Part shown: positions 28,618-40,153 of the stretch, one piece after another
Numbering within the stretch: the stretch's first letter is position 1
Layout of the letters: each line of letters starts with the position of its first letter
Source of the DNA: Gemmatimonadales bacterium
GTDB lineage: Bacteria; Gemmatimonadota; Gemmatimonadetes; Gemmatimonadales; GWC2-71-9
Length of the DNA: 64,000 bases
Assembly: GCA_039794085.1 (NCBI GenBank)
Contig: JBDIWC010000019.1
Span: 1-64,000, forward strand
Direction of reading: 5' to 3'
Position numbers and translations under genes: made by a program
Notes under the pieces: generated by a model
What the model saw: only the letters and a program-made list of their open reading frames with translations
Database searches by the model: none
What the model was told of the DNA's origin: nothing

Positions 28618-29140
28618 AGTTCGAAGTTCGAAGTTCGAAGTTTGAAGGGAGACGGACCTCTATCGGAGCGTCACCCCGGCGCACGCCGGGGTCCACTGGC
28701 CGGGTGATGCATGATGCAGGGGCGGCATCTCTTTCGCCGGTGGTGGGTGCAATGACTCACGCGAAGACGCGAAGTCGCGAAGGCAAGCGGGGCCTCGGCC
28801 TCTCTCGGAGCGTCACCCCGGCGGACGCCGGGGTCCATTGGCCGGGTGACGTAGGGGCGAAATACTTTCGCGAGGATGACTCACGCGAAGACGCGAACGG
28901 AAGTGTGAAGTTCGAAGTTTGAAGTTTGAAGGGAGACGGACCTCCCTCGGAGCGTCACCCCTGAAGTCAGGCACGTGATTGAGGAGAGGGATCGGGACAG
29001 GTGGAGGGGATGGGTCCCTACCGCCTGCCGCCCATCGCCTACCGCCTACGATGGCCGTCACCCCGGCGCACGCCGGGGTCCACTGGCTGTGTGATGCATG
29101 AAGCAGGGGCGGCATCTCTTTCGCCCGTGGCGGGTGCAAC
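28609..29140. repeat. Mosaic repeat cluster with internal duplications
   Basis: GAAGTT tract+gggagacggacctc at 28609 and 28900; ggggtccactgg..gcaggggcggcatctctttcgcc..gggtgcaa at 28687 and 29075. Confidence 0.85.
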
Positions 29141-29371
29141 ATCCTTGTTGAGGATGTGATCGCAGGCCTGCCGGACGCCCTCGTTGTGGAGGACTACCCC
29201 ACCTACCCGAAAGGCCCGTGCGTCCTGGTGCTTCAACGCGATTCGAGTGGGTTGCCGATCCATGTCGTGTGGGGTATTCCTGCAGGGAAGGATTCGCCGG
29301 GGGTCCTGATCACGGCGTATCGGCCGGACCCGGGGAGGTGGGACGAGACGTTTCGAAGGAGGTTAGCGTGA
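29141..29371 (+). pseudogene. 5'-truncated DUF4258 toxin
   Basis: '[41 protein letters not shown]'; the N-terminal part is missing and the frame abuts a repeat. Confidence 0.7.
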
Positions 29372-29586
29372 GCATCAAGTCGATGACGAAGCTCGTGCGA
29401 GAGGGTGACCTCATCGCCGAGGTTGCCGTTGAACTCCGTGAGGATGCGGGCGACTGGTCCCCGACCATGTCGGTGGCGGACGCGACGAAACTGGACGAGG
29501 TTCGGCGCGCACTCCTTTCGGGAGACGTGCGCCGGGCATCCCGCCTTGCCGACAGAGTCTATCGCCTGACGCCGATCGCCAGTTGA
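29368..29586 (+). CDS. Putative antitoxin partner of DUF4258
   Basis: GTG with AAGGAGG, overlapping the toxin stop; '[36 protein letters not shown]'. Confidence 0.8.
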
Positions 29587-29760
29587 GGCGAGTGTCGTCT
29601 GTCGCGTGTACCTGACGGTCCGTCCTGAGGCCCGCAGATACCTCCGGGGAGGTCCAGGCGATGAGTGAGCCCATTGCCGAGACCTTTTTGGATTCTCGGG
29701 TTCCCTCGCCGCGGGCTTAGAGGCGCTCGACATGGACAGCCCCCGGCAAATCATTGAGGC

Positions 29761-30138
29761 CTCATCCGGGTTTCGTGTGGGTGGGGGGAACTTCAACCCG
29801 CCATTTCTCGGATCTCTTCACGCCTTCCTGGGGTTGGATGTCGGAGTGAGGTGAGGGGCTCCGGTGGCCAGGCGGGCGGGGGAATGGCCACAAGAGGCAC
29901 AAAAGGCACAAGAAGCACGAGATCCCGCGGAGGGTCGCTCGCTGTCGGGAGGGGGTGGAACCACAGATGACGCCGATGACACTGAGCCGCGCCCCCACAC
30001 CGACTGGACTCAGGACCAGCTTGGGCAGAGTTCACACCGCGTCATCAGTGTCATCCGTGGTTTCTTCCGGGGGGTGAGGGGAGGCGCTCCGGGCTCAACA
30101 TGGACCCATGCCAAAGCCTGAAGAGCCTCATTGAGAAG
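29761..30138. repeat. Composite dispersed repeat homologous to 7213-7702
   Basis: Same ends; internal inverted repeat ccacagatgacgccgatgac / gtcatcagtgtcatccgtgg. Confidence 0.8.
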
Positions 30139-30190: not shown

Positions 30191-30409
30191 ATGCCATACG
30201 TCAACGTGCAGATCACCAGGGGCGCCACCCGGGCGCAAAAGGCCGAACTCGTCCAGGACATCACCGATTCACTGGTCCGGGTGCTCGGCAAGAAGCCGGA
30301 ACACACGCACGTCGTGATCCAGGAGATCGCCGAGGAGGACTGGGGGTTCTCCGGCATGCTCACCGATGACTGGAGAAGGGCGCAGGGCCGGAATCCCGGT
30401 GGCGAGTAG
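30191..30409 (+). CDS. 4-oxalocrotonate tautomerase family protein
   Basis: Pro-1 start 'MPYVNVQIT', 'QKAELV', 'THVVIQEI..DWGFSG'. Confidence 0.92.
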   Translation: MPYVNVQITRGATRAQKAELVQDITDSLVRVLGKKPEHTHVVIQEIAEEDWGFSGMLTDDWRRAQGRNPGGE

Positions 30410-30445: not shown

Positions 30446-30594
30446 TTGAGCGGACTGTTCGGGACCCCGGACGCCGGTGCCGACCGGGTGGCCCGGCGCA
30501 TTTGGGACGACATCGCGCCCCAGGTCGAGGTAGTCTGCGGCCGACCGGAACGCCCGGGAGAACACGCCCCCCCCAAGACAGCGCGCCTGGCCCA
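30446..30594 (+). pseudogene. hsdR 3'-end remnant, copy 1
   Basis: Translates 'LFGT..ADRVARRIWDDIAPQV' and, after a frameshift, 'NARENTP..ARLA'. Confidence 0.7.
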
Positions 30595-30692
30595 GCCGGA
30601 GTCGGGAGGGTTGCAGAACGGGAGCGGCCGAGTTGCCCGGCCGCCCTCGATCCACCTTATTTCACATATCGTCCCTTGCCTGTGAGGCGACC

Positions 30693-30857
30693 ATGACCGG
30701 TACTGCTCCCCTCAAACAGAGAATCCTCGACGCTGTTGACGGCCTCCCGCCCAACGCGACGATTGAGGATGCGATCGAACGTCTTGTCTTTGTGGCCAAG
30801 GTGGAGCGGGGCCTCGCCCAGGCTTGGGATGCGTCGGCGGACCGGGAACCAGAGTAA
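30693..30857 (+). pseudogene. Truncated small antitoxin-like protein
   Basis: 'KQRILDAVDGLP.NATIEDAIERL.FVAKVERGLAQ', then diverges; its usual RelE/ParE partner is absent. Confidence 0.55.
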
Positions 30858-30858
30858 C

Positions 30859-31092
30859 TTGAAGGCCACGGAGTATTTTCGGTACACGCGCCTCCGCCCC
30901 GACCGGGCACGAATTCTGGAAGCGTGGATCGAGTTGGCGATCCGTGCTCCGTACACCGAACAGGTCCAATCGGATGGCCGCGTTCGGCGGTGGGTGTTCA
31001 TCGAGCCGGAGCAACGATATCTCCGGGTGGTGTTGCTCGCTGATCGCGAAACGGTCCACAATGCATTTTTCGACCGAGGGTTCAAGCCATGA
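30859..31092 (+). CDS. Putative toxin (DUF4258-like), paired with DUF2283
   Basis: TTG start; 'QSDGRVRRW..RYLRVVLL.DRETVHNAFFDRGF'; ATGA coupling to the next gene. Confidence 0.8.
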   Translation: MKATEYFRYTRLRPDRARILEAWIELAIRAPYTEQVQSDGRVRRWVFIEPEQRYLRVVLLADRETVHNAFFDRGFKP

Positions 31093-31295
31093 ACGTCAAA
31101 TACTTCACAGACACCGACACGGCGCTCTTGGAGTTTTCGGAACAGCCGGTCGACGAAACCAGGGAGATCTCCGAGAATGTCTATGTCGACCTCGACAAGG
31201 ACGGCAATCTCGTGAGCATGACTATCGAGCACGCGGCTCAGGTTGCATCTCTGCCACGCGTGAACCTTGAGGAGATCGGCTCACGCGCTGGATAG
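31089..31295 (+). CDS. DUF2283 putative antitoxin
   Basis: 'VKYFTDTDTALLEF..VDLDKDGNLVSMTIEHA'. Confidence 0.88.
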   Translation: MNVKYFTDTDTALLEFSEQPVDETREISENVYVDLDKDGNLVSMTIEHAAQVASLPRVNLEEIGSRAG

Positions 31296-31350
31296 CGAGC
31301 AAAGCAGCTGATGAACGCGTAGGGACTCACCTCTGTGCCCCGAGCCTTGG

Positions 31351-31574
31351 GACGTTCACCAAGGACTTCGGGACCCTCTCCACCGATGCCGACCGGGGCG
31401 CCCCGGCGCATCCGGGACGACATGGCCCCCCAGGTCGCGGTAGTCTGCGACCGACCGGAACGTCCGGGAGAACACACCCCCAACGCGCGCCTGGCCCACG
31501 ACCAGGAGCGGGCCCATGGTGAGGCATCTCCTCCTGAAAGAGGACACCCTGGACCAGGCAGTTCGTGGAGAACG
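31351..31574 (+). pseudogene. hsdR 3'-end remnant, copy 2
   Basis: 'FGTLSTDADR', 'RRIRDDMAPQV', 'ARLAHDQ', 'LLLKEDT', 'QFVEN' across frameshifts. Confidence 0.72.
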
Positions 31575-31595
31575 GCCCGGGGGGGGGGAGGTGTC

Positions 31596-31629
31596 TTGCA
31601 TTGTACATATTGTGTACGTATGTTAAGGA
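31596..31629 (+). promoter_or_regulatory. Leaderless brnTA promoter with operator palindrome
   Basis: TTGCAT-17 nt-TATGTT-5 nt-ATG; GTACA-N5-TGTAC in the spacer. Confidence 0.65.
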
Positions 31630-31926
31630 ATGAGTGAGCTTCGGTTTGAGTGGGATCCGCGCAAGGCGGCAGACAACCTGCGGAAGCATGGGGTCTCGTT
31701 CAGCGAGGCGCAGACCGTGTTCACTGATGAACACGGCGTCCTGATCGATGATCCTGACCATTCGGCCAGCGAGGACCGCTTCGTGCTCCTGGGGGTGAGT
31801 GCCACCAGCCGACTCCTGGTCGTCGTTCACTGCTACCGTGCCGCGGATCTGGTCATCCGGATCATTTCTGCCCGGAAGGCGGACCGACTTGAGCGCCGCC
31901 ATTATGAGGAAGGTGGACCGTCATGA
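31630..31926 (+). CDS. brnT: BrnT family toxin
   Basis: 'FEWDPRKA..NLRKHGVSF.EA..VF.D..EDRF..LG..LLVVVH..IRIISARKA'. Confidence 0.93.
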   Translation: MSELRFEWDPRKAADNLRKHGVSFSEAQTVFTDEHGVLIDDPDHSASEDRFVLLGVSATSRLLVVVHCYRAADLVIRIISARKADRLERRHYEEGGPS

Positions 31927-32153
31927 GAGACCACTACGATTTTTCGAAGGGACGCCCGAACCCCTACGCCAAGCTCCTGAAGAAGCCCGTGACGATCCGA
32001 TTGGATACCGCCACGGTCGAATACTTCAAGGGATTGGCCGAGGAGTCGGACATTCCGTACCAGACCTTGATCAACCTGTACCTGCGGGATTGTGCCGCCA
32101 ATCACCGGCGCCTCGATCTTCGGTGGCGCGGCTCCAAGGCCGGGACGGCGTGA
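31923..32153 (+). CDS. brnA: BrnA family antitoxin (RHH)
   Basis: 'YDFSKGRPNPY..KKPVTIRLD..YFK..PYQTLINLYL'. Confidence 0.9.
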   Translation: MRDHYDFSKGRPNPYAKLLKKPVTIRLDTATVEYFKGLAEESDIPYQTLINLYLRDCAANHRRLDLRWRGSKAGTA

Positions 32154-32292
32154 CAGAGGGGGGATAGCGTCATCGACCTGCCCCTCGAGGTCGATGGCCG
32201 CCTCTCGGTGTAGCTCGATGGGATCCTGGATCCGCTCCGACCTCGGCTGGTGCCCCGGTCCCGAGGCCGAGGAGCCAAGGTCTCGCCCCACC

Positions 32293-32538
32293 GGATGCCG
32301 ACCGGGTGGCCCGGCGCATTCGGGACGACAGTGCTCCCCAGGTCCCCGCGGATGCCGCCTACCAGAACGCCCGGGAGAACACGCCCCACACCGCGCGCCT
32401 GGCGCACGACCAGGCGGTGGCCCACGGTGAGGCAGCTCGTCCGGAAGGAGGACACCCTGGACCAGGCCGTTCGTGGAGAACGAGTCGTTCAAGCGGCTTG
32501 TGGGTGACATGGTGTCTGCGATCACGAATGCCGCGTAG
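32293..32538 (+). pseudogene. hsdR 3'-end remnant, copy 3 (retains the terminal stop)
   Basis: 'ARRIRDDSAPQVPADAAYQNARENTPHTARLAHDQA' and 'FVENESFKRLVGDMVSAITNAA*'. Confidence 0.78.
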
Positions 32539-32838
32539 GGCGGGGCCTCGGCGGGCGGTTCGGAGGCTCCCGCGAATTCGGACCTGGAGGAAGAGAGCTG
32601 AATCCTTCACAAAGTGCCGCAGGTGTCCGGGCAGCAGAGGGTTACGGGATGGGGCTGCAAGTGCTAGTGTTCTGGGGATCTCACCGGGTGATGGGATCCG
32701 GTACCGTATGTCTGGTTGCTTCTACAGGATCATGGACCGCTGACGAGCGTGGGGTGCTTGGAGATCTGCGACAGGATTGAGCCCCCGGGAGCAATTTGGA
32801 AATTACGTTGCTTTTTAAAGGTACAGGCGTGACAAGCA

Positions 32839-33177
32839 ATGCCAGACAAACCCTTTGCGGCGATTCTCGAACGCGTGCGAAAGGCCGCCGCCCGGCGGAT
32901 CCTTTTCCTGCCTCACGCTGTCCGACAGATGGCCAAGCCGGAGAGACTGATCTCCACTGCTGAGGTGCGAAACGCGGTCGTGGAGAATGGAGAAGTAATC
33001 GAGGACTACCCGGATGATCTGCGAGGTCAGAGCTGTCTCATTCTGGGGATAGGTGAGAACGGACGCCCTCTTCATATCGTCTGCTCCCCGAAAGATGAGT
33101 TTCTGGCGATCATTACGGCGTATGTCCCTTCAGCTCACGAATGGGAAAAGGACTGGAAAACGAGGAACTCGAGATGA
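32839..33177 (+). CDS. DUF4258 toxin
   Basis: 'FLPHAVRQM..GEVIEDYPDD.RG.SCLILG..RPLHIVC..IITAYVP'. Confidence 0.9.
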   Translation: MPDKPFAAILERVRKAAARRILFLPHAVRQMAKPERLISTAEVRNAVVENGEVIEDYPDDLRGQSCLILGIGENGRPLHIVCSPKDEFLAIITAYVPSAHEWEKDWKTRNSR

Positions 33178-33386
33178 AATGTATTCTCTGCCATGGCGAA
33201 ATGGTGCGAAGCGTTGCGCCGTTCCATGTTGACCGAAAAGGATATCATCTACTCCTGGACGCTGTCCCTGCGTGGGTATGCTCGCAGTGCGGTGAGGCAT
33301 ATTTTGAGGAAGCGGAGGTGGGATCAATCCAGGAAGCGATTCGAGCCATCGATGGTCAGGCGTCAAAGCTCGCGGCCTCTGCCTGA
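33174..33386 (+). CDS. YgiT-type zinc-finger antitoxin
   Basis: 'MKCILCHGEM...VPAWVCSQCGEAYF'; ATGA overlap. Confidence 0.9.
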   Translation: MKCILCHGEMVRSVAPFHVDRKGYHLLLDAVPAWVCSQCGEAYFEEAEVGSIQEAIRAIDGQASKLAASA

Positions 33387-33450
33387 CGAGTAGGACGCAC
33401 CACAGCCAGCCAATGGAGCGGACGTTTTGACAGCGTTGCTCACCGGCGTC

Positions 33451-33616
33451 GTTCGGGACCCTGTTCACCGATGCCCGACTGTGTCGCTCGGCGCATTCGC
33501 GACGACAGTTGCTCCCCAGGTCCCCGCGGATGCGTCCGTCCAGAACGCCCGGGAGAACACACCCCCACCGCGCGCCTGGCCCACGACTAGGTGCTGGCCC
33601 ACGGTGAGGCACCTCC
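33451..33616 (+). pseudogene. hsdR 3'-end remnant, copy 4
   Basis: 'FGTLFTDA', 'APQVPADASVQNARENTP', 'ARLAHD*'. Confidence 0.72.
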
Positions 33617-33994
33617 AATCCTGTTCATCCTGTGCATCCATGTTCCCCTTCCCGGGGCAAGGCCTCGCTCCGCACCGTGTCCGTCCGTCCCCGTCGGGGA
33701 CACCTCGGGCCAGCGGCCCGGTGTCACACCTTTTCGATATCTTCCATGTTGTCCGGTGGGGCCAATTCCGGGGTGTTCACGCCCTCGTGTCATTGGAGTT
33801 CGGAGCGAGGCGATTGGGCCCGGGTTGCCAGGTTGGCGGGAAAGGGCCACAAGAGGCACAAAAGGCACAAGAGGTCCGAACCAGAGCCAGACCCCGCCAG
33901 AAGATGCCAGCGGGAGGAGGGGCCGAGTCGAGTACAAGTACGGGTATGTGGACGGGAACGGGAACACTGAACACTGCGACGAAAGGCAACCCCG

Positions 33995-34633
33995 ATGGCC
34001 GGACTTTCCCCGCTGACGGACAGGGCAGCCGTCCTCAAGGCGATCGTCGAGTACGACGCTGTTGGGCGGGACGCGTTCCTCGAGCGGTACGGCTTCGGAC
34101 GCGCCAAGTGGTGGTACCTCCTGCACGAGGGGAAGCAGTACGATTCGAAGGCAATCATTGGCGCTGCCATGGGGTATCAAATGGGGACACCTCTGACCGC
34201 CGTGGATTTCAAGGGCGGCGAAGCGAGCGCCGTCCGCAAACTCCAGTCCCTGGGCTTCCGGGTCACTCGGAGCAAGATCACGGATGAATCGTCGATGTTA
34301 CCGGAAGAAGTCCCGGCCTCGTATCCCGAGGGAAACCGAAGGACGGTCACCGTGAACCGGGCCGAGCGCAGTGCTGAGGCGCGCCAGGCGTGCATCGAGA
34401 TGCATGGCACGGCCTGTACGGTGTGCGGCATCGAATTTGGCGAGGTGTACGGCCTCCAGTTCACAGGCCTGATTCACGTTCATCACCTTGCTCCGCTGGC
34501 CGGTCAGACCGACCTCCGGCAGGTGGATCCCCAGACAGATCTTTGTCCAGTATGCCCGAACTGCCACGCAGTGATTCACCATGGCGGTGCGAACCGGACC
34601 CTTGAGGAGGTTGAACGCTGCCTCAAACGGTGA
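33995..34633 (+). CDS. HNH endonuclease (McrA-like, with ScoMcrA-type N-terminal head)
   Basis: 'AVLKAIVEYD.VGRDAFLERYGF..YDSKAIIGAA..FKGGE'; 'CTVCG..HVHH..LCPVCPNCHAVIH'. Confidence 0.88.
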   Translation: MAGLSPLTDRAAVLKAIVEYDAVGRDAFLERYGFGRAKWWYLLHEGKQYDSKAIIGAAMGYQMGTPLTAVDFKGGEASAVRKLQSLGFRVTRSKITDESSMLPEEVPASYPEGNRRTVTVNRAERSAEARQACIEMHGTACTVCGIEFGEVYGLQFTGLIHVHHLAPLAGQTDLRQVDPQTDLCPVCPNCHAVIHHGGANRTLEEVERCLKR

Positions 34634-34640
34634 AAGGACG

Positions 34641-34742
34641 CGGCCGGAGCCCGAACTGGATCACCTGAGCAACATCCTCCGGAGCTTCAACGAGGAGTTC
34701 GGGACTCTGTTCACCGATGCCGACCGGGTGGCCCGGCGCATC
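34641..34742 (+). pseudogene. hsdR remnant, copy 5
   Basis: In frame 'RPEPELDHLSNILRSFNEEFGTLFTDADRVARRI'. Confidence 0.78.
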
Positions 34743-35062
34743 AACGGAGGGGACTGATCGCTCAGGCCAGGAGTGAACGCCAGAGTCTGCTGTCGTCATC
34801 CCCGATTCCACTCGACCATCTCCCCGCGGATGTCGCAGAGAAGACGCTCGGCGTGATTGCTGCGCTGCGGGACGGTAGACCATACATGGATTTCAGGGGC
34901 AAACGCCTCGGGACGATGGGGCAACGCGAGATCGTCTCGGTCCCGATAGGTCGGAGACACCGGCTCATATGCAGGGACGCCAACGGCTCCCTGGAGTTCA
35001 TCGAGGCATTATCGCATGAAGAATACAATAACCGGCTCTCGGCGGGCGGTTGGGCGAGGTGA
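34742..35062 (+). pseudogene. ParE-like toxin-domain gene, probably 5'-truncated
   Basis: Open frame 'PIPLDHLP..FRGKRL..SVPIGRRHRL..LSHEEYN' runs back to the hsdR remnant with no ATG; GTG at 34853 is a possible start. Confidence 0.55.
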
Positions 35063-35160
35063 TCGATGCTTGACAACCGTGCCAGCCATGTCGTGATCCA
35101 GGAAGTCGCCGAGGAGGACTGGGCGCCGGTCCGGACCGCCACCACGTCGCCTGCGACAGT

Positions 35161-35178
35161 TTGTGAAATTATTCACAA
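35161..35178. promoter_or_regulatory. Perfect Rex-box-like palindrome
   Basis: TTGTGAA-ATTA-TTCACAA. Confidence 0.55.
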
Positions 35179-35476
35179 ATGTCCGGCAGGTGTGGGGCCC
35201 AGAGGGTTTCCGGATGGGCCGCAGCCTGGATCGCGAGAACCTGCTGGTGGGATCGCGCCCATGAGCCAGGTGCACCGTGCTACCGGAAGCTGAATCAAAG
35301 CGTCCCATTGATTTACGCTGCACGGCTAAGCTAAAATAACGGAAGCCCATATTTGAGCATGTTCACCGCCGCCCCGGGACCATCGGCCACGAAACCGGCG
35401 CCAGCCTGATCCTCTGTGGCCTCACCGGCATTCGCAACGGCTTCTTTCGGCTCATTTTTACTCAGGAGGGGGCCTG

Positions 35477-36589
35477 ATGAGCGCGGTTGCATATCACGCC
35501 GGGCACTTTCCGCCGGCAACACTCGACTGGCCCCGCCTGATCCCGCTCCTGGGCCCCGCAGCGGCAGCCGTGGCTCGCTATGATGGCATGCTGGCCGCCG
35601 TGCCGAACCCCGCGGTCCTGCTTGCCCCCCTGACCACGCAGGAAGCGGTGCTTTCTTCGCGCATCGAGGGCACCCAGGCCACGATGGGTGAGGTGCTGGA
35701 GTTTGAGGCCGGACAGAAATCGGCGACGCCCGAGCGGCGCGACGACATTCACGAGGTGCTCAACTATCGCGCGGCCATGCAGGAGGCTGAGCGGTTGCTA
35801 GTGGAACTGCCGCTCTCCCAGCGCGTGATTCGAGACATGCATCGCGTGTTACTCCAGGGCGTGCGCGGCCAGAACAAGGCGCCCGGGGAGTACCGGCGCA
35901 CCCCCAACTGGATTGGGCCTGCAGGGTGCACCGTCGAACAGGCGCGGTTCGTTCCGATCGGTGCCGAACGTCTGCCCGATGCGATGAGTGTTTGGGAGCG
36001 ATACGCTCATGAGAACGCGCCGGACCGTTTGGTGCAACTCGCGATCCTCCACGCCGAGTTCGAAGCATTGCATCCCTTTCTGGACGGAAACGGCCGCCTG
36101 GGGCGGATGTTCGTGCCACTCTTCCTGTGGCAGCACGGGTTGATCCGTCGGCCAATGTTCTATATCAGCGGCTGGCTCGAGGCACGGCGCGACGAGTACT
36201 ACGAGCGCCTCCTGGCCGTCTCCCGCGACGATGATTGGACCGGGTGGTGCGGTTTCTTCATCGAGGCGGTGAAGGTCCAGGCCGAGGAGAACCTCGCCCG
36301 GACGCAGGCCATCCTGAAGTTGCACGACGAACTGAAGCACCGGCTGCCGGAAATGACCCGATCTCAGTACGCGGTACGAGCCCTGGACTGGATCTTCGCC
36401 CGGCCGATCTTCAGTGCCCCGGACTTCATTCAAGATGCCGGAATCCCCGCCCCAACGGCTCGGCGTTTCCTGGGGGTGTTGCGTAAGCACGATGTGCTGA
36501 GGGATCTGAGATCCGGCCGCGGCCGCCGAGCCGCAGTGCTCGCCTTCCCCGCGTTGCTGAACATCGCAGAAGGACGGGAGGTCCTTTGA
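35477..36589 (+). CDS. Fic family protein
   Basis: 'EAVLSSRIEGT' inhibitory helix; 'HPFLDGNGRLGR' Fic motif; AGGAGG RBS. Confidence 0.95.
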   Translation: MSAVAYHAGHFPPATLDWPRLIPLLGPAAAAVARYDGMLAAVPNPAVLLAPLTTQEAVLSSRIEGTQATMGEVLEFEAGQKSATPERRDDIHEVLNYRAAMQEAERLLVELPLSQRVIRDMHRVLLQGVRGQNKAPGEYRRTPNWIGPAGCTVEQARFVPIGAERLPDAMSVWERYAHENAPDRLVQLAILHAEFEALHPFLDGNGRLGRMFVPLFLWQHGLIRRPMFYISGWLEARRDEYYERLLAVSRDDDWTGWCGFFIEAVKVQAEENLARTQAILKLHDELKHRLPEMTRSQYAVRALDWIFARPIFSAPDFIQDAGIPAPTARRFLGVLRKHDVLRDLRSGRGRRAAVLAFPALLNIAEGREVL

Positions 36590-36761
36590 TGATCACAGGA
36601 TCCAGTCAAAACATGTTGTCGCTCACTATTCGTCATAATGTGAGCGTCAAAGTGGCTCGCCGATAACCATTGAGCGACAACCGGCACGAACTGGCCACCA
36701 TACCTCGCCGGCCTGGACCGTCATCCTTGCAATTCTGGAACAGTACTCCATAATTGCACAG

Positions 36762-37928
36762 ATGATCCCTCGCCGCCTCCTCCCCGACGTCACCTCCGCC
36801 CTGGCCGAAGTCCCGGCCGTGGCACTCCTGGGACCCCGTCAGGCGGGAAAGACCACGCTGGCGCTCGCGGTGGCCAGGGGGCGGCCAGCGATCTATCTCG
36901 ATCTCGAATCCGAGGCCGACCGGGCCAAGCTCGCGGAGCCGGAACTCTACCTGTCGCAGCACGAGGACAAGCTCGTCATCCTCGACGAGATCCATCGTGC
37001 ACCGCAGGTCTTCCAAAGCCTGCGTGGGCTCATCGACGCCGGCAGGCGGCGCGGGAGTGGCACGGGCCGCTTTCTGGTCCTCGGCTCGGCGTCGATGGAC
37101 CTGCTCAAGCAATCGAGCGAGTCGCTCGCGGGACGCATTCGCTACCTGGAGCTCTCCCCACTCGACGCCGGCGAGGTGGGCCCTGAACGTCTCGACGCGC
37201 TCTGGCTCCGGGGCGGATTCCCCGAAAGCCTCCTGGCTGCCTCGGATGCGGCCAGCCTGCGCTGGCGCACCGACTTCATCCGCACCTACCTCGAGCGCGA
37301 CATCCCGCAGCTCGGGCCGCGTATCCCGGCCGAGACCTTGCGTCGCTTCTGGACGATGCTCGCGCACCAGCAAGGGGGCCTGCTCAACGCCGCAGCTCTC
37401 GCCCGCGCGCTCGCGGTGGACGGCAAGACGGTCGCGGCCTATCTCGACCTGCTCGTCGATTTGCTGCTGGTGCGCCGCCTCGCGCCGTGGCACGGAAATG
37501 TCAAGAAACGGCTGGTCAAGTCACCCAAGGTCTACGTGCGCGACAGCGGGCTGGCGCACGCGCTGCTCGGGCTCGGCGACACGGAGGCCCTGCTGGGGCA
37601 CCCTGTCGCCGGCGGAAGCTGGGAGGGCCTGGCCATCGAGTCGCTGATCGCCGCCGCACCGACCAGCACCGAATCGTACTTTTTCCGCACCTCGACCGGC
37701 GCCGAGATCGATCTGCTGCTGAAACTGCCGGGCCACCGCAAGCCCTGGGCTATCGAAGTCAAGCGCGGCCTCGCGCCGAAGCTCGAGCGAGGCTTCCACC
37801 TGGCCTGCGACGTGGTTCGTCCGGAGCGGCGCCTGGTGGTCTACGGCGGGGTCGAGCGCTTCCCGCTCGGCGAAGGCGCGGAGGCGATCTCACTCATCGG
37901 ACTCGCCGAGGAGCTGTCCGCACCATGA
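36762..37928 (+). CDS. AAA+ ATPase with DUF4143 (PD-(D/E)xK-like) C-terminus
   Basis: Walker A 'GPRQAGKT', Walker B 'ILDEIH', 'KSPKVYVRDSGL', 'EIDLLL..IEVK'. Confidence 0.93.
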   Translation: MIPRRLLPDVTSALAEVPAVALLGPRQAGKTTLALAVARGRPAIYLDLESEADRAKLAEPELYLSQHEDKLVILDEIHRAPQVFQSLRGLIDAGRRRGSGTGRFLVLGSASMDLLKQSSESLAGRIRYLELSPLDAGEVGPERLDALWLRGGFPESLLAASDAASLRWRTDFIRTYLERDIPQLGPRIPAETLRRFWTMLAHQQGGLLNAAALARALAVDGKTVAAYLDLLVDLLLVRRLAPWHGNVKKRLVKSPKVYVRDSGLAHALLGLGDTEALLGHPVAGGSWEGLAIESLIAAAPTSTESYFFRTSTGAEIDLLLKLPGHRKPWAIEVKRGLAPKLERGFHLACDVVRPERRLVVYGGVERFPLGEGAEAISLIGLAEELSAP

Positions 37929-38047: not shown

Positions 38048-40153
38048 ATGCTCAACAGAATCCTCCGCCCCCGATCCATTGCCGTCATCGGCGCCTCCCG
38101 CCGCCCCGGGACCATCGGCCACGAAACCGTCGCCAGTCTGATCCGCTGCGGCTTCGCCGGCGCCCTCTACCCGGTGAACCCCGACGCCGGCTCGATCTGC
38201 TCGGTCCCCGCCTTCCCGTCTGTCCGGGACCTCCCCGGCCCGGTCGATCTCGCGGTCGTCATCGTCCCCAAACAACATGTCCAGCCCGTCGTCGAACAGT
38301 GCGCGGCACTCGGCGTCGGCGGGCTCGTGATCATCTCGGCGGGGTTCCGCGAGGTCGGCGACGACGGGATCGAACGGGAACGGGTGCTGACCGAGTTCGT
38401 CCGGAGCCGCGGGATCCGTATGATAGGCCCCAACTGCATGGGCGTCTTGAATGTGGACCCCACCGTCTCCATGAACGCGACCTTTGCCCCGTCGATGCCA
38501 CCGTTCGGACGCGCCGCCTTCATGAGCCAGTCGGGCGCCATGGGCCTGAGTGTCCTCGACTACGCCCGCGAATACGGCATCGGCATCTCCCAGTTCGTGT
38601 CGATGGGGAACAAGGCCGACGTGAGCGGCAACGACCTCCTCCTCGCCTGGGAAAATGATCCCGGAGTCGACACCATCCTCATGTACGTGGAGAACTTCGG
38701 GAACCCCCGCAAATTCCTGGAAATCGCCTCCCGCGTCTCCCGCACCAAGCCGATCATCGTGGTGAAGTCGGGCCGCTCCCGCTCCGGGGCACGCGCCGCG
38801 TCGAGCCACACCGGGGCCCTCGCCGCGAGTGACACGGCGGTCGATGCGCTGCTCAACCAGGCCGGCGTCCTGCGAGCCGGAACGGTGGAGGAACTGTTCG
38901 ACCTGGCGATGGTCTTTGCCGGAACCCGCCGCCCCCGGGGGCGCCGGGTGGCGGTGGTGACCAATGCCGGAGGCCCCGGCATCCTCGCCGCCGATGCGCT
39001 CGAGACCCACGGCCTCGACATGGTGGAGCTGTCGCCGGAGACGGTGGAGGCGATCCGGCCCCTCTTTCCCGCCGAGGCCTCGGTAAGGAATCCGCTCGAC
39101 ATGATCGCCTCGGCGACACCGGCGGGGTACCGCGTGGCGATGCACGCCCTCCTGAACGACCCCGGGGTCGACGCCGTGGTCCCGATCTACATCCCGCCGC
39201 TCCGCGCCCAGCAGAAGGAGACGACCCGGGTGATCGCCGAGGTGGCCCTGGCCCACCCCGACAAACCGGTGCTGCCGGTGCTGATGGGATTGGAGGGTCT
39301 CCCGGCGGGCCGCGCCGAGCTGCACGAGGCGGGGCTTCCGGCGTTCATCTTTCCCGAATCGGCGGCCCGGGGCCTCGCGGCGCTCTGCCGCTGGCGGGAG
39401 TGGAGGGACCGGCCCCGGACCGAGGAGCCGCCGCTCGTGGTGGACCGGGAGCGCGCCCGCACCATTCTCGACCGGCACCACAGCGAGAACCCCGGCGTCA
39501 CCAAGCTCCCGGAGGACGCGGTGTTCGACCTGCTCGATGCCTACGGTGTCGCGACCATCAGGCGGGGCATCGCGCGTTCGGCTGACGAGGCGGCGGCGAT
39601 CGCCGAGGAGCTGGGTGGGCCGGTGGCGCTCAAGATCCTCTCCCCCGACATCGTCCACAAGACAGACGTGGGCGGCGTCCGGCTCGGCCTCCTCGGTCCC
39701 CAGGTGCGGGAAGGATTCGAGACGATGTACGCCGCCGTCACCCGGGCCCTGCCCGAGGCTCGGCTGGACGGCGTGATGGTGCAGCAGATGGCGGCCAAGG
39801 GGGGGGGGCGCGAGATGATCGTGGGGGTGACGCGGGAGGGATCCTTCGGCCCGCTCGTCATGTTCGGCCTGGGCGGCACCCTGGTGGAGGCGCTGGGAGA
39901 CGTGGTGTTTCGTCTCGCGCCGGTGGATGGGGTGGAGGCGAGGAGCATGGTGCACGGGATCCGCTCGATCCGCCTCCTCACCGGCATCCGCGGCGATCCG
40001 CCGGTCGATTTCGAGGCGCTGGAGGACGCGGTGCGCCGGATCGGGCAGTTGGCGTGGGACTTCCCGGAGATCGCGGAACTCGACGTGAACCCGCTGCTGG
40101 CGTATACCGACGGGGTGTTGGCCGTGGACGGACGGGTGATGGTGAACCCGTAG
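38048..40153 (+). CDS. Acetate--CoA ligase (ADP-forming) family, fused alpha/beta
   Basis: 'IAVIGAS', 'GPNCMG', 'SQSGA', 'SHTGALA', 'NPLDM', ATP-grasp 'HKTDVGGV', 'ELDVNPL'. Confidence 0.93.
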   Translation: MLNRILRPRSIAVIGASRRPGTIGHETVASLIRCGFAGALYPVNPDAGSICSVPAFPSVRDLPGPVDLAVVIVPKQHVQPVVEQCAALGVGGLVIISAGFREVGDDGIERERVLTEFVRSRGIRMIGPNCMGVLNVDPTVSMNATFAPSMPPFGRAAFMSQSGAMGLSVLDYAREYGIGISQFVSMGNKADVSGNDLLLAWENDPGVDTILMYVENFGNPRKFLEIASRVSRTKPIIVVKSGRSRSGARAASSHTGALAASDTAVDALLNQAGVLRAGTVEELFDLAMVFAGTRRPRGRRVAVVTNAGGPGILAADALETHGLDMVELSPETVEAIRPLFPAEASVRNPLDMIASATPAGYRVAMHALLNDPGVDAVVPIYIPPLRAQQKETTRVIAEVALAHPDKPVLPVLMGLEGLPAGRAELHEAGLPAFIFPESAARGLAALCRWREWRDRPRTEEPPLVVDRERARTILDRHHSENPGVTKLPEDAVFDLLDAYGVATIRRGIARSADEAAAIAEELGGPVALKILSPDIVHKTDVGGVRLGLLGPQVREGFETMYAAVTRALPEARLDGVMVQQMAAKGGGREMIVGVTREGSFGPLVMFGLGGTLVEALGDVVFRLAPVDGVEARSMVHGIRSIRLLTGIRGDPPVDFEALEDAVRRIGQLAWDFPEIAELDVNPLLAYTDGVLAVDGRVMVNP

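Follow-up and report, generated by a model that had tools for sequence, protein, structure and literature searches.

Defence and toxin-antitoxin (TA) genes pile up in bacterial islands, often beside restriction-modification (R-M) genes, and their addition without an integrase is poorly understood. Genomic islands accrete in tandem at tRNA genes or at the 3' ends of other genes, and clusters of attC sites lacking an integrase are known as CALIN. For R-M genes, the accessible text of Furuta, Abe & Kobayashi (2010; PMC2853133) describes inserts of less than 20 kb between direct repeats that are longer than 30 bp and variable, at sites where neither an integrase nor a transposase is present. In V. 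cholerae, the immunity arrays of the type VI secretion system (T6SS) have been explained by a homology-facilitated displacement model that was also proposed for Rhs arrays (Kirchberger 2017; PMC5361080, accessible part). Here we describe a TA gene array in a Gemmatimonadales genome (G000; GCA_039794085.1; 4.16 Mb in 115 contigs, 94.7% complete) that shares features with all of these. It lies in the first 64,000 nucleotides of contig C19 (JBDIWC010000019.1, positions 1 to 64,000; hereafter the window), where five decayed copies of the 3' end of hsdR, a type I restriction gene, are each followed by different cargo genes. The copies likely descend from a single hsdR tail that was already dead, and this tail was probably reused as the entry point for new cargo. 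Throughout, C denotes a contig of the genome studied, G a relative genome, L a fetched locus, and c1 to c5 the five hsdR tail copies.

The tail copies were located with a 420-nt DNA profile built from 80 hsdR 3' ends, which matches the window at five places with E-values of 1e-14 to 1e-50. All five are co-oriented on the + strand and 100–247 nt long (Table 1), and their pairwise identity of 82–93% makes an assembly artefact unlikely. A first-pass annotation of this DNA had reported a repeat at 30446, 31351, 32293, 33451 and 34641 and taken it for the C-terminus of HsdR. The profile matches fall within about 6 nt of those positions, and the assignment to HsdR proved right: c3 corresponds to the 3'-terminal 244 nt of a gene annotated as 'type I restriction endonuclease subunit R' on plasmid NZ_CP035709 (74% DNA identity, E 4e-30), and it is 76% identical to the annotated HsdR protein over 42 amino acids. 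Scattering of the repeat throughout the genome, which would have told against a link with the TA genes, was not observed, as queries with the five copies found just two weak matches of 42–45 nt elsewhere in 4.16 Mb. It was also correctly noted that no intact hsdR is visible. A full-length hsdR profile (3057 nt, from 30 of 40 intact genes) matches only the five tail pieces at E<=1, and no intact type I R-M system, comprising hsdR with hsdM and hsdS, was found in this genome, where the five 3' pieces of hsdR are all that match. A candidate sixth scrap of hsdR lies at 29704-29746 (+) and would represent the part of the gene next upstream of that covered by the five copies; it scores 35.6 bits against intact hsdR by blastn, a value reached by 0 of 88 control windows with a thin margin (maximum 33.7), and has a profile E-value of 0.47.

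The ends of the copies are ragged. On the profile, the left end varies from position 104 to 177 and the right end from 204 to the stop codon, while neighbouring copies align with each other over 45–197 nt and the units measure 0.7–1.0 kb. A fixed recombination site was rejected because both ends vary, and whole-unit tandem duplication because the cargo units share no DNA similarity.

Alignment of the five copies, a check that had been proposed with the annotation, revealed frameshifts common to several of them. Against 12 intact tails the copies form one clade (bootstrap 100), within which c1 and c2 are sisters (bootstrap 91–95). The relation of c3 to c4 is less clear: three derived sites join them and five conflict, the tree gives no support for the pair, and c3 groups towards the outgroup at 76–83. 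Three frame-breaking indels are common to copies and occur in 0 of 80 intact tails, namely a +1 in c1 and c2, a +1 in c2 and c3, and a -2 in c2 and c3; in two of the alignments the second of these is also found in c4. The 80 tails used for this comparison are the best of 255 confirmed loci, a set biased toward intact genes. Sites that vary among the copies are distributed 13/22/23 over the three codon positions (third-position excess p=0.19), compared with 68% at third positions in intact genes. The single clade, the common frameshifts absent from all 80 intact tails and the lack of third-codon bias make it likely that the five copies descend from a single, already dead hsdR tail. Judged by their sequences, c1 to c4 would have diverged after the death of the gene, and c5 does not extend far enough to contain those common indels.

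The cargo is uniformly co-oriented on the + strand in one- or two-gene units. Most of the family labels given in the first pass were upheld (DUF2283, BrnT, BrnA, DUF4258, ParE-like, YgiT finger and HNH), whereas the 'DUF4258-like' reading frame at 30859-31092 has no Pfam, NCBIfam or PADLOC match. The truncated antitoxin behind c1 represents the 5' part of a gene on contig C1, where the partner of the intact antitoxin is one that we take to be RelE/ParE-like; a close match is also present in the sister genome G001. For the HNH protein only partial homologues were found, at about 50% identity or less, and its N-terminal domain is 51% identical to the product of the gene directly behind intact hsdR in L054. 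No close homologue of the DUF4258/YgiT unit was detected in 200 genomes of the order, and plasmid matches in the search for cargo donors reached 36–44%.

The statement that no integrase or attC site is visible holds for the window and fails for the genome. In the window, a pattern-and-fold scan found no intact attC, none of the 17 open reading frames (ORFs) scanned encodes an integrase or transposase, and contig C19 has no match to the integron-integrase model TIGR02249. Elsewhere in the genome, attC-like sites were detected on C22, C8 and C14 by the same scan and on C37 by profile, and TIGR02249 has 19 matches, one of them over the cut-off and split across two frames on C22. Some of the weaker matches are likely of the XerC/D type. 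DNA of the array is matched in 46 of 300 family genomes, mostly via BrnT/BrnA, and the best matches are inside attC arrays, in one case beside an integron-integrase fragment. Of 21 BrnA homologues, 17 have TAAC at their end and 11 have a full attC-like pattern behind them; two of three DUF2283 homologues end in GCATAAC. When 10 junctions were scored with a weight matrix of 39 attC left arms, attC-like stubs were obtained at the ends of DUF2283 (31290, p=0.011, 2.6 bits) and YgiT (33400, p=0.021, 0.6 bits), where real sites in the genome score 11–22 bits, and no stub was obtained at the end of BrnA (p=0.80). Part of the cargo, namely the BrnT/BrnA and DUF2283 units, therefore likely consists of former integron cassettes; the evidence for this origin is firm in the relatives and no more than suggestive at the junctions in the window. 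The label 'integrase-free' thus remains apt in that the locus has no site-specific machinery, and needs amending in that some of its cargo looks cassette-derived.

The idea of the hsdR tail as a recombination handle survived comparison with the rest of the genome, where many other co-oriented gene-end duplicates bracket cargo. They were identified in a scan of 3,659 heuristically called genes, using queries of at least 450 nt and excluding dispersed repeat families, in which some loci are counted several times. All 37 local gene-fragment duplicates, some of which are paralogue pairs or tandem amplifications, have the orientation of their gene. Copies of 3' ends are located downstream in 10 of 12 matches and copies of 5' ends upstream in 7 of 11. 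The cargo bracketed by such duplicates is often TA-like (PIN, DUF433/DUF5615, Phd, RhuM), and within the window itself, pieces of a tautomerase gene and an acetate-CoA ligase gene are duplicated around cargo. At C13:73415-82300 (L141), the 3' end of an ABC permease gene is present three times, as three different alleles with cargo between them. Substitutions separating the orphan ends from the gene are at third positions in 20 of 25 and 18 of 26 cases. The farthest orphan is 85.5% identical to the intact end in G001, with which it has the last codons in common, and 78.8% identical to its own gene. With the orphan closer to the end in G001 than to its own gene, the sequences indicate that incoming alleles displaced the old gene end at this locus. 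At the LytB locus on C18, G000 and G001 differ in cargo at the same position and G001 lacks local repeats. Empty-site checks in G001, made for five duplicated loci besides the array, ran mostly into contig breaks or replaced cargo.

The dead tail probably served repeatedly as an entry point, be it by additive recombination or by local insertion. We tentatively prefer repeated additive recombination into the tail, which we give nearly an even chance, because of the displaced alleles elsewhere in the genome and the model developed for T6SS and Rhs arrays (PMC5361080, accessible part). A single homologous crossover with a resident copy would bring in DNA that carries the dead tail and new cargo, and the array would afterwards hold both copies. 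Such DNA could be donated by kin with the same dead tail, or an array of this kind could release it as a looped-out unit; for kin DNA, natural transformation would be the likely route of uptake. ComEC is encoded in the genome, which supports this route weakly since 10 of 14 control genomes also carry it. The non-homologous ends would be joined imprecisely, in keeping with the variable left and right ends of the copies. The cargo would be drawn from a mobile TA pool of the lineage, consisting partly of integron cassettes that lose attC on entry or later, and cargo that is addictive or defensive would be preserved as the tails decay. The parts of the model that we infer are the mechanism of crossover, the donors, how the DNA was taken up and any present-day activity. 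A more far-reaching proposal, which we consider unlikely, is that a pseudogene fragment without a product can be a heritable landing pad, through which cassettes or TA units enter without an integrase, shed attC and become fixed, each entry making a new pad. If true, mobile cassettes would thereby have a self-extending path into sedentary defence islands, one that persists after its founder gene is gone.

Several observations weigh against additive recombination. No relative with the dead tail was found: neither of the two same-genus genomes has it, and in the 300 family genomes the tail is matched only in G454, by a full-length hsdR with no extra copies, which leaves the kin donors of the model hypothetical. 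In this set no excision or reordering of units was seen either. The sister relation of the neighbours c1 and c2 would follow just as readily from plain local duplication; the acetate-CoA ligase duplicate in the window shows no codon bias (2/2/2); and homology-facilitated illegitimate events are described as rare in the accessible text of PMC5361080. The alternative of local insertion, in which cargo without hsdR homology arrives in nested events, break repair copies 100–250 bp of the target and the copies decay in place, draws on the same sisterhood, as c1 and c2 flank one cargo. The copies c3 and c4 also flank one cargo; at 87% they show the highest identity among the long pairs, and they have their three derived sites in common. 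Neighbouring copies overlap by about 150–190 profile positions, the tautomerase and acetate-CoA ligase genes have the same kind of duplicate beside cargo, and the process is known for R-M genes, for which the accessible part of PMC2853133 describes long, variable duplications and no mobile element. We nevertheless regard local insertion as somewhat unlikely given the five conflicting sites and the position of c3 in the tree. Moreover, the copies are 13–18% apart, similar to the non-coding divergence between G000 and G001, yet G001 has no tail; the other loci in G000 hold foreign alleles and not local copies; and no empty-site genome was found, with G001 having other cargo and a contig break.

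Additive recombination as preferred here also has to be set against two further scenarios. The array might be a decayed cluster of integron cassettes, or the product of an integrase acting in trans at secondary sites, with the hsdR piece a passenger amplified together with neighbouring DNA. The attC arrays around the closest BrnT/BrnA and DUF2283 relatives, the attC-like sites and 19 TIGR02249 matches in the genome and the stubs at two of 10 junctions fit this scenario, but the window has no intact attC, its stubs are far below the scores of real sites, the sole integrase over the cut-off is split over two frames, and the HNH, ParE and antitoxin junctions are without a cassette signal. Integrase insertion does not make a target duplication of 100–250 bp either, and we consider an integron origin of the array quite unlikely. 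According to the first-pass annotation, downstream defence genes from different donors were stacked through the conserved hsdR tail. Taken literally, every copy would be the end of a different working hsdR, imported together with the defence gene behind it, which would agree with the survey of genes behind intact hsdR that had been suggested (70 of 133 predicted ORFs scanned, leaving out housekeeping-looking genes and poor calls): TA or defence families occur at at least 15 of 80 loci, and homologues of this array's own cargo are directly downstream of intact hsdR in 3 of 80 (L046, L054 and L077). In addition, c5 has no frameshift and could, alone among the copies, stem from a working gene. 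For c1 to c4, separate donors are contradicted by the monophyly of the copies, the frameshifts that no intact tail has and the lack of codon bias; none of the closest DNA relatives of the cargo is beside an hsdR tail among L164-L194, apart from G454's own gene. As an account of the array, separate donors are thus very improbable.

Arrangements that resemble parts of the array were found in other genomes. A second tail copy is present in one of the 80 intact-hsdR loci, L110, where it abuts the first with no cargo between; at L110:199-1035, the C-terminal ~120 codons of hsdR are tandemly duplicated in one open frame. Among 401 phylum genomes, 43 match, G000 included, and single orphan hsdR ends occur in G420, G267, G279 and G103. 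In G420, an intact hsdR is followed by Mrr-like and AAA cargo and then by a 997-nt copy of the hsdR end at 96% identity, a layout that likely represents an early stage of array growth. In G283, TA genes stand in a row downstream of an intact system, and tail copies are absent. More than two tail copies were seen in none of six regions fetched from the phylum matches, and the 0 and 3 matches from two exact-pattern scans of metagenome contigs include no hsdR tail by profile.

The array is part of a broader accessory region (~29.0–38.0 kb) with a pseudouridine glycosidase-family gene (PF04227) on one side and an acetate-CoA ligase-like gene on the other (Table 1). G001 has both flanks at 94–97% identity, with different DNA and no hsdR tail between them; two contigs of G001 break at the locus, so that adjacency of its flanks is an assumption. 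At this place G001 carries other TA-like fragments (end of L126 and start of L127; C145, C72) and a candidate insert that, from its end motifs, we take to resemble a group II intron (L126/L127). Rfam families gave 0 matches within 27–40 kb, and scans for promoters and terminators stayed at chance level with no pattern linked to the tail copies. Dispersed repeats are very dense in the intergenic DNA of the window between 3800 and 56000, where at least 60 direct-repeat families include palindromes and tandem tracts of 7–8-mers; across the genome, ~293 kb has two or more distant matches. Between 50 and 93% of the sequence words of the window occur in four public runs from one hot-spring sample, which may be its source; the shares in eight other runs are small and count as no evidence.

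Table 1. Features of the accessory region in the window, in order of position, and loci of integron-integrase fragments on other contigs.
Feature	Position	Strand	Evidence and remarks
84-nt direct duplicate of 28669-28752, left edge of accessory region	29056-29139	+	94% identity; palindromic genome-wide repeat family; missing from matching G001 flank
5'-truncated DUF4258 toxin-like ORF and 72-aa partner ORF	29156-29586	+	PF14076 from model position 28; partner without family match (Pfam, NCBIfam, PADLOC)
Dispersed intergenic repeat copy, genome-wide	29760-30130	+	many matches on other contigs
Tautomerase-family gene	30191-30409	+	PF01361 E 1e-18
hsdR tail copy c1	30447-30594	+	tail-profile positions 149-290
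Antitoxin promoter region and first 44 codons	30629-30860	+	85% DNA and 93% aa identity to intact gene on C1
Two-gene unit, small toxin-like ORF and DUF2283	30859-31295	+	PF10049; attC-left-arm-like stub at 31290
hsdR tail copy c2	31345-31574	+	profile 138-367
Intact BrnT/BrnA pair	31630-32153	+	PF04365, PF14384
hsdR tail copy c3, sole copy with gene end	32293-32539	+	profile 177 to stop codon (profile match 32293-32529)
Short repeat, second site 35172-35218	32606-32677	+	further copies on contigs C37 and C10
DUF4258 toxin-like gene and YgiT zinc-finger antitoxin-like gene	32839-33386	+	PF14076, TIGR03831; weak attC-like stub at 33400
hsdR tail copy c4	33451-33616	+	profile 159-322
Dispersed intergenic repeat, partial copy	33767-33880	+	
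212-aa HNH nuclease, type IV restriction-like N-terminal domain	33995-34633	+	PADLOC mREase_IV E 8e-15; weak PF01844
hsdR tail copy c5, no frameshift across 33 codons	34642-34742	+	profile 104-204
5'-truncated ParE-like ORF, fused directly to c5 in another frame	34751-35062	+	PF24732 E 2e-20
37-nt duplicate of tautomerase gene interior (30308-30344)	35087-35123	+	92% identity
64-nt duplicate of acetate-CoA ligase gene 5' part (38098-38161)	35366-35429	+	91% identity; brackets Fic and AAA genes
SoFic-like Fic gene and PDC-S01-like AAA/DUF4143 gene	35477-37928	+	PADLOC E 2e-107 and 1e-87; Pfam
Recurring integron-integrase fragments	C8:31590-37643 (L200)		
Recurring integron-integrase fragments	C14:23298-26272 (L202)		
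Recurring integron-integrase fragments	C11:26416-40257 (L201)		
Recurring integron-integrase fragments	C18:58690-58773		

Further loci hold integron remnants, gene fragments or repeats. At C22:55900-58900 (L198:5874-8866), an integron with its integrase split in two frames continues with antitoxin/ParE, an uncharacterised ORF, HicA/HicB units and a pair of attC-like sites. A layout like that of the hsdR array, but built on integrase tails, is seen at four loci (Table 1): each has two or three co-oriented fragments of integron-integrase genes, for the most part 3' ends, and between or beside these lies TA or defence cargo (FRG, TIR, HigA/B, DUF4160). Among family relatives, L193 (G335), L194 (G514) and L190 (G142) contain large attC cassette arrays, several with duplicated BrnT/BrnA cassettes. 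At C49:12404-15507, there are five tandem units of ~650 bp, each consisting of the last 27 codons of a gene, a small lipoprotein-like ORF and a heptamer repeat tract; these units are 74–93% alike and some are broken. At C10:72981-75756 (L146), an hsdM-like gene of another family has a second copy of its first 300 nt upstream, with a RhuM gene in between, and at C37:571-2014 a fragment that we presume to be hsdM-like is followed by a BrnT/BrnA-like pair. The short repeat at 32606-32677 and 35172-35218 recurs at C37:2732, C37:3664 and C10:77954, so that loci on C37 and C10 holding hsdM-like pieces have it too. Long genes with repeated internal fragments at C81:4975-12394 form a layout that is presumably an Rhs-like orphan.

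Set beside the described systems, the locus is not an integron. As in integrons and CALIN, co-oriented units of one or two genes are spaced at about 1 kb and TA pairs abound, and some of the cargo is homologous to true cassettes in relatives, but there is no attC or integrase at the locus and the spacers are ragged pieces of an hsdR pseudogene. As in tandem island accretion, repeated copies of a gene 3' end separate blocks of cargo; unlike there, no integrase and no fixed crossover point were found and the units are only about 1 kb long. If former integron cassettes were indeed fixed in this way, the cassette pool would be linked to sedentary defence islands.

With T6SS and orphan Rhs or contact-dependent inhibition (CDI) arrays, as presented in the accessible part of PMC5361080, the locus would have in common growth by homology-anchored addition, older modules pushed downstream, gene-end remnants and no known integrase. 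It differs from them in that no intact parent gene stands at the head of the array, that the anchor was probably already dead when copied, and that the cargo consists of whole unrelated genes instead of toxin tips and immunity genes. Orphan ends that are alleles of once-working genes, a feature of Rhs, CDI and T6SS arrays, are seen at the permease locus on C13 and not among the hsdR copies.

The locus also resembles the long target duplications around R-M genes, judged by the accessible text of PMC2853133. Direct repeats longer than 30 bp (here 100–247 nt) are present on both sides, the inserts are shorter than 20 kb and no mobile element was found among the 17 ORFs. In contrast to the R-M inserts described there, no insert contains both R and M genes, the cargo being TA pairs and one HNH/type IV-like nuclease, and the repeat is itself a piece of a dead R-M gene in five nested copies. 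The literature searched, which did not extend to most subscription papers and supplements, contained no description of a TA array with hsdR ends as its separators. The locus records five rounds of one process by which defence genes are added without an integrase, with datable scars, and it suggests that a gene can serve as the anchor without being functional. The general scar has already been described around restriction genes, as far as the accessible part of PMC2853133 goes, and the array is a longer form of it. What sets this locus apart is that the nesting is five-fold, the anchor dead and orphaned and part of the cargo apparently cassette-derived. Its value is that of a clear, extended example and not of a new system.

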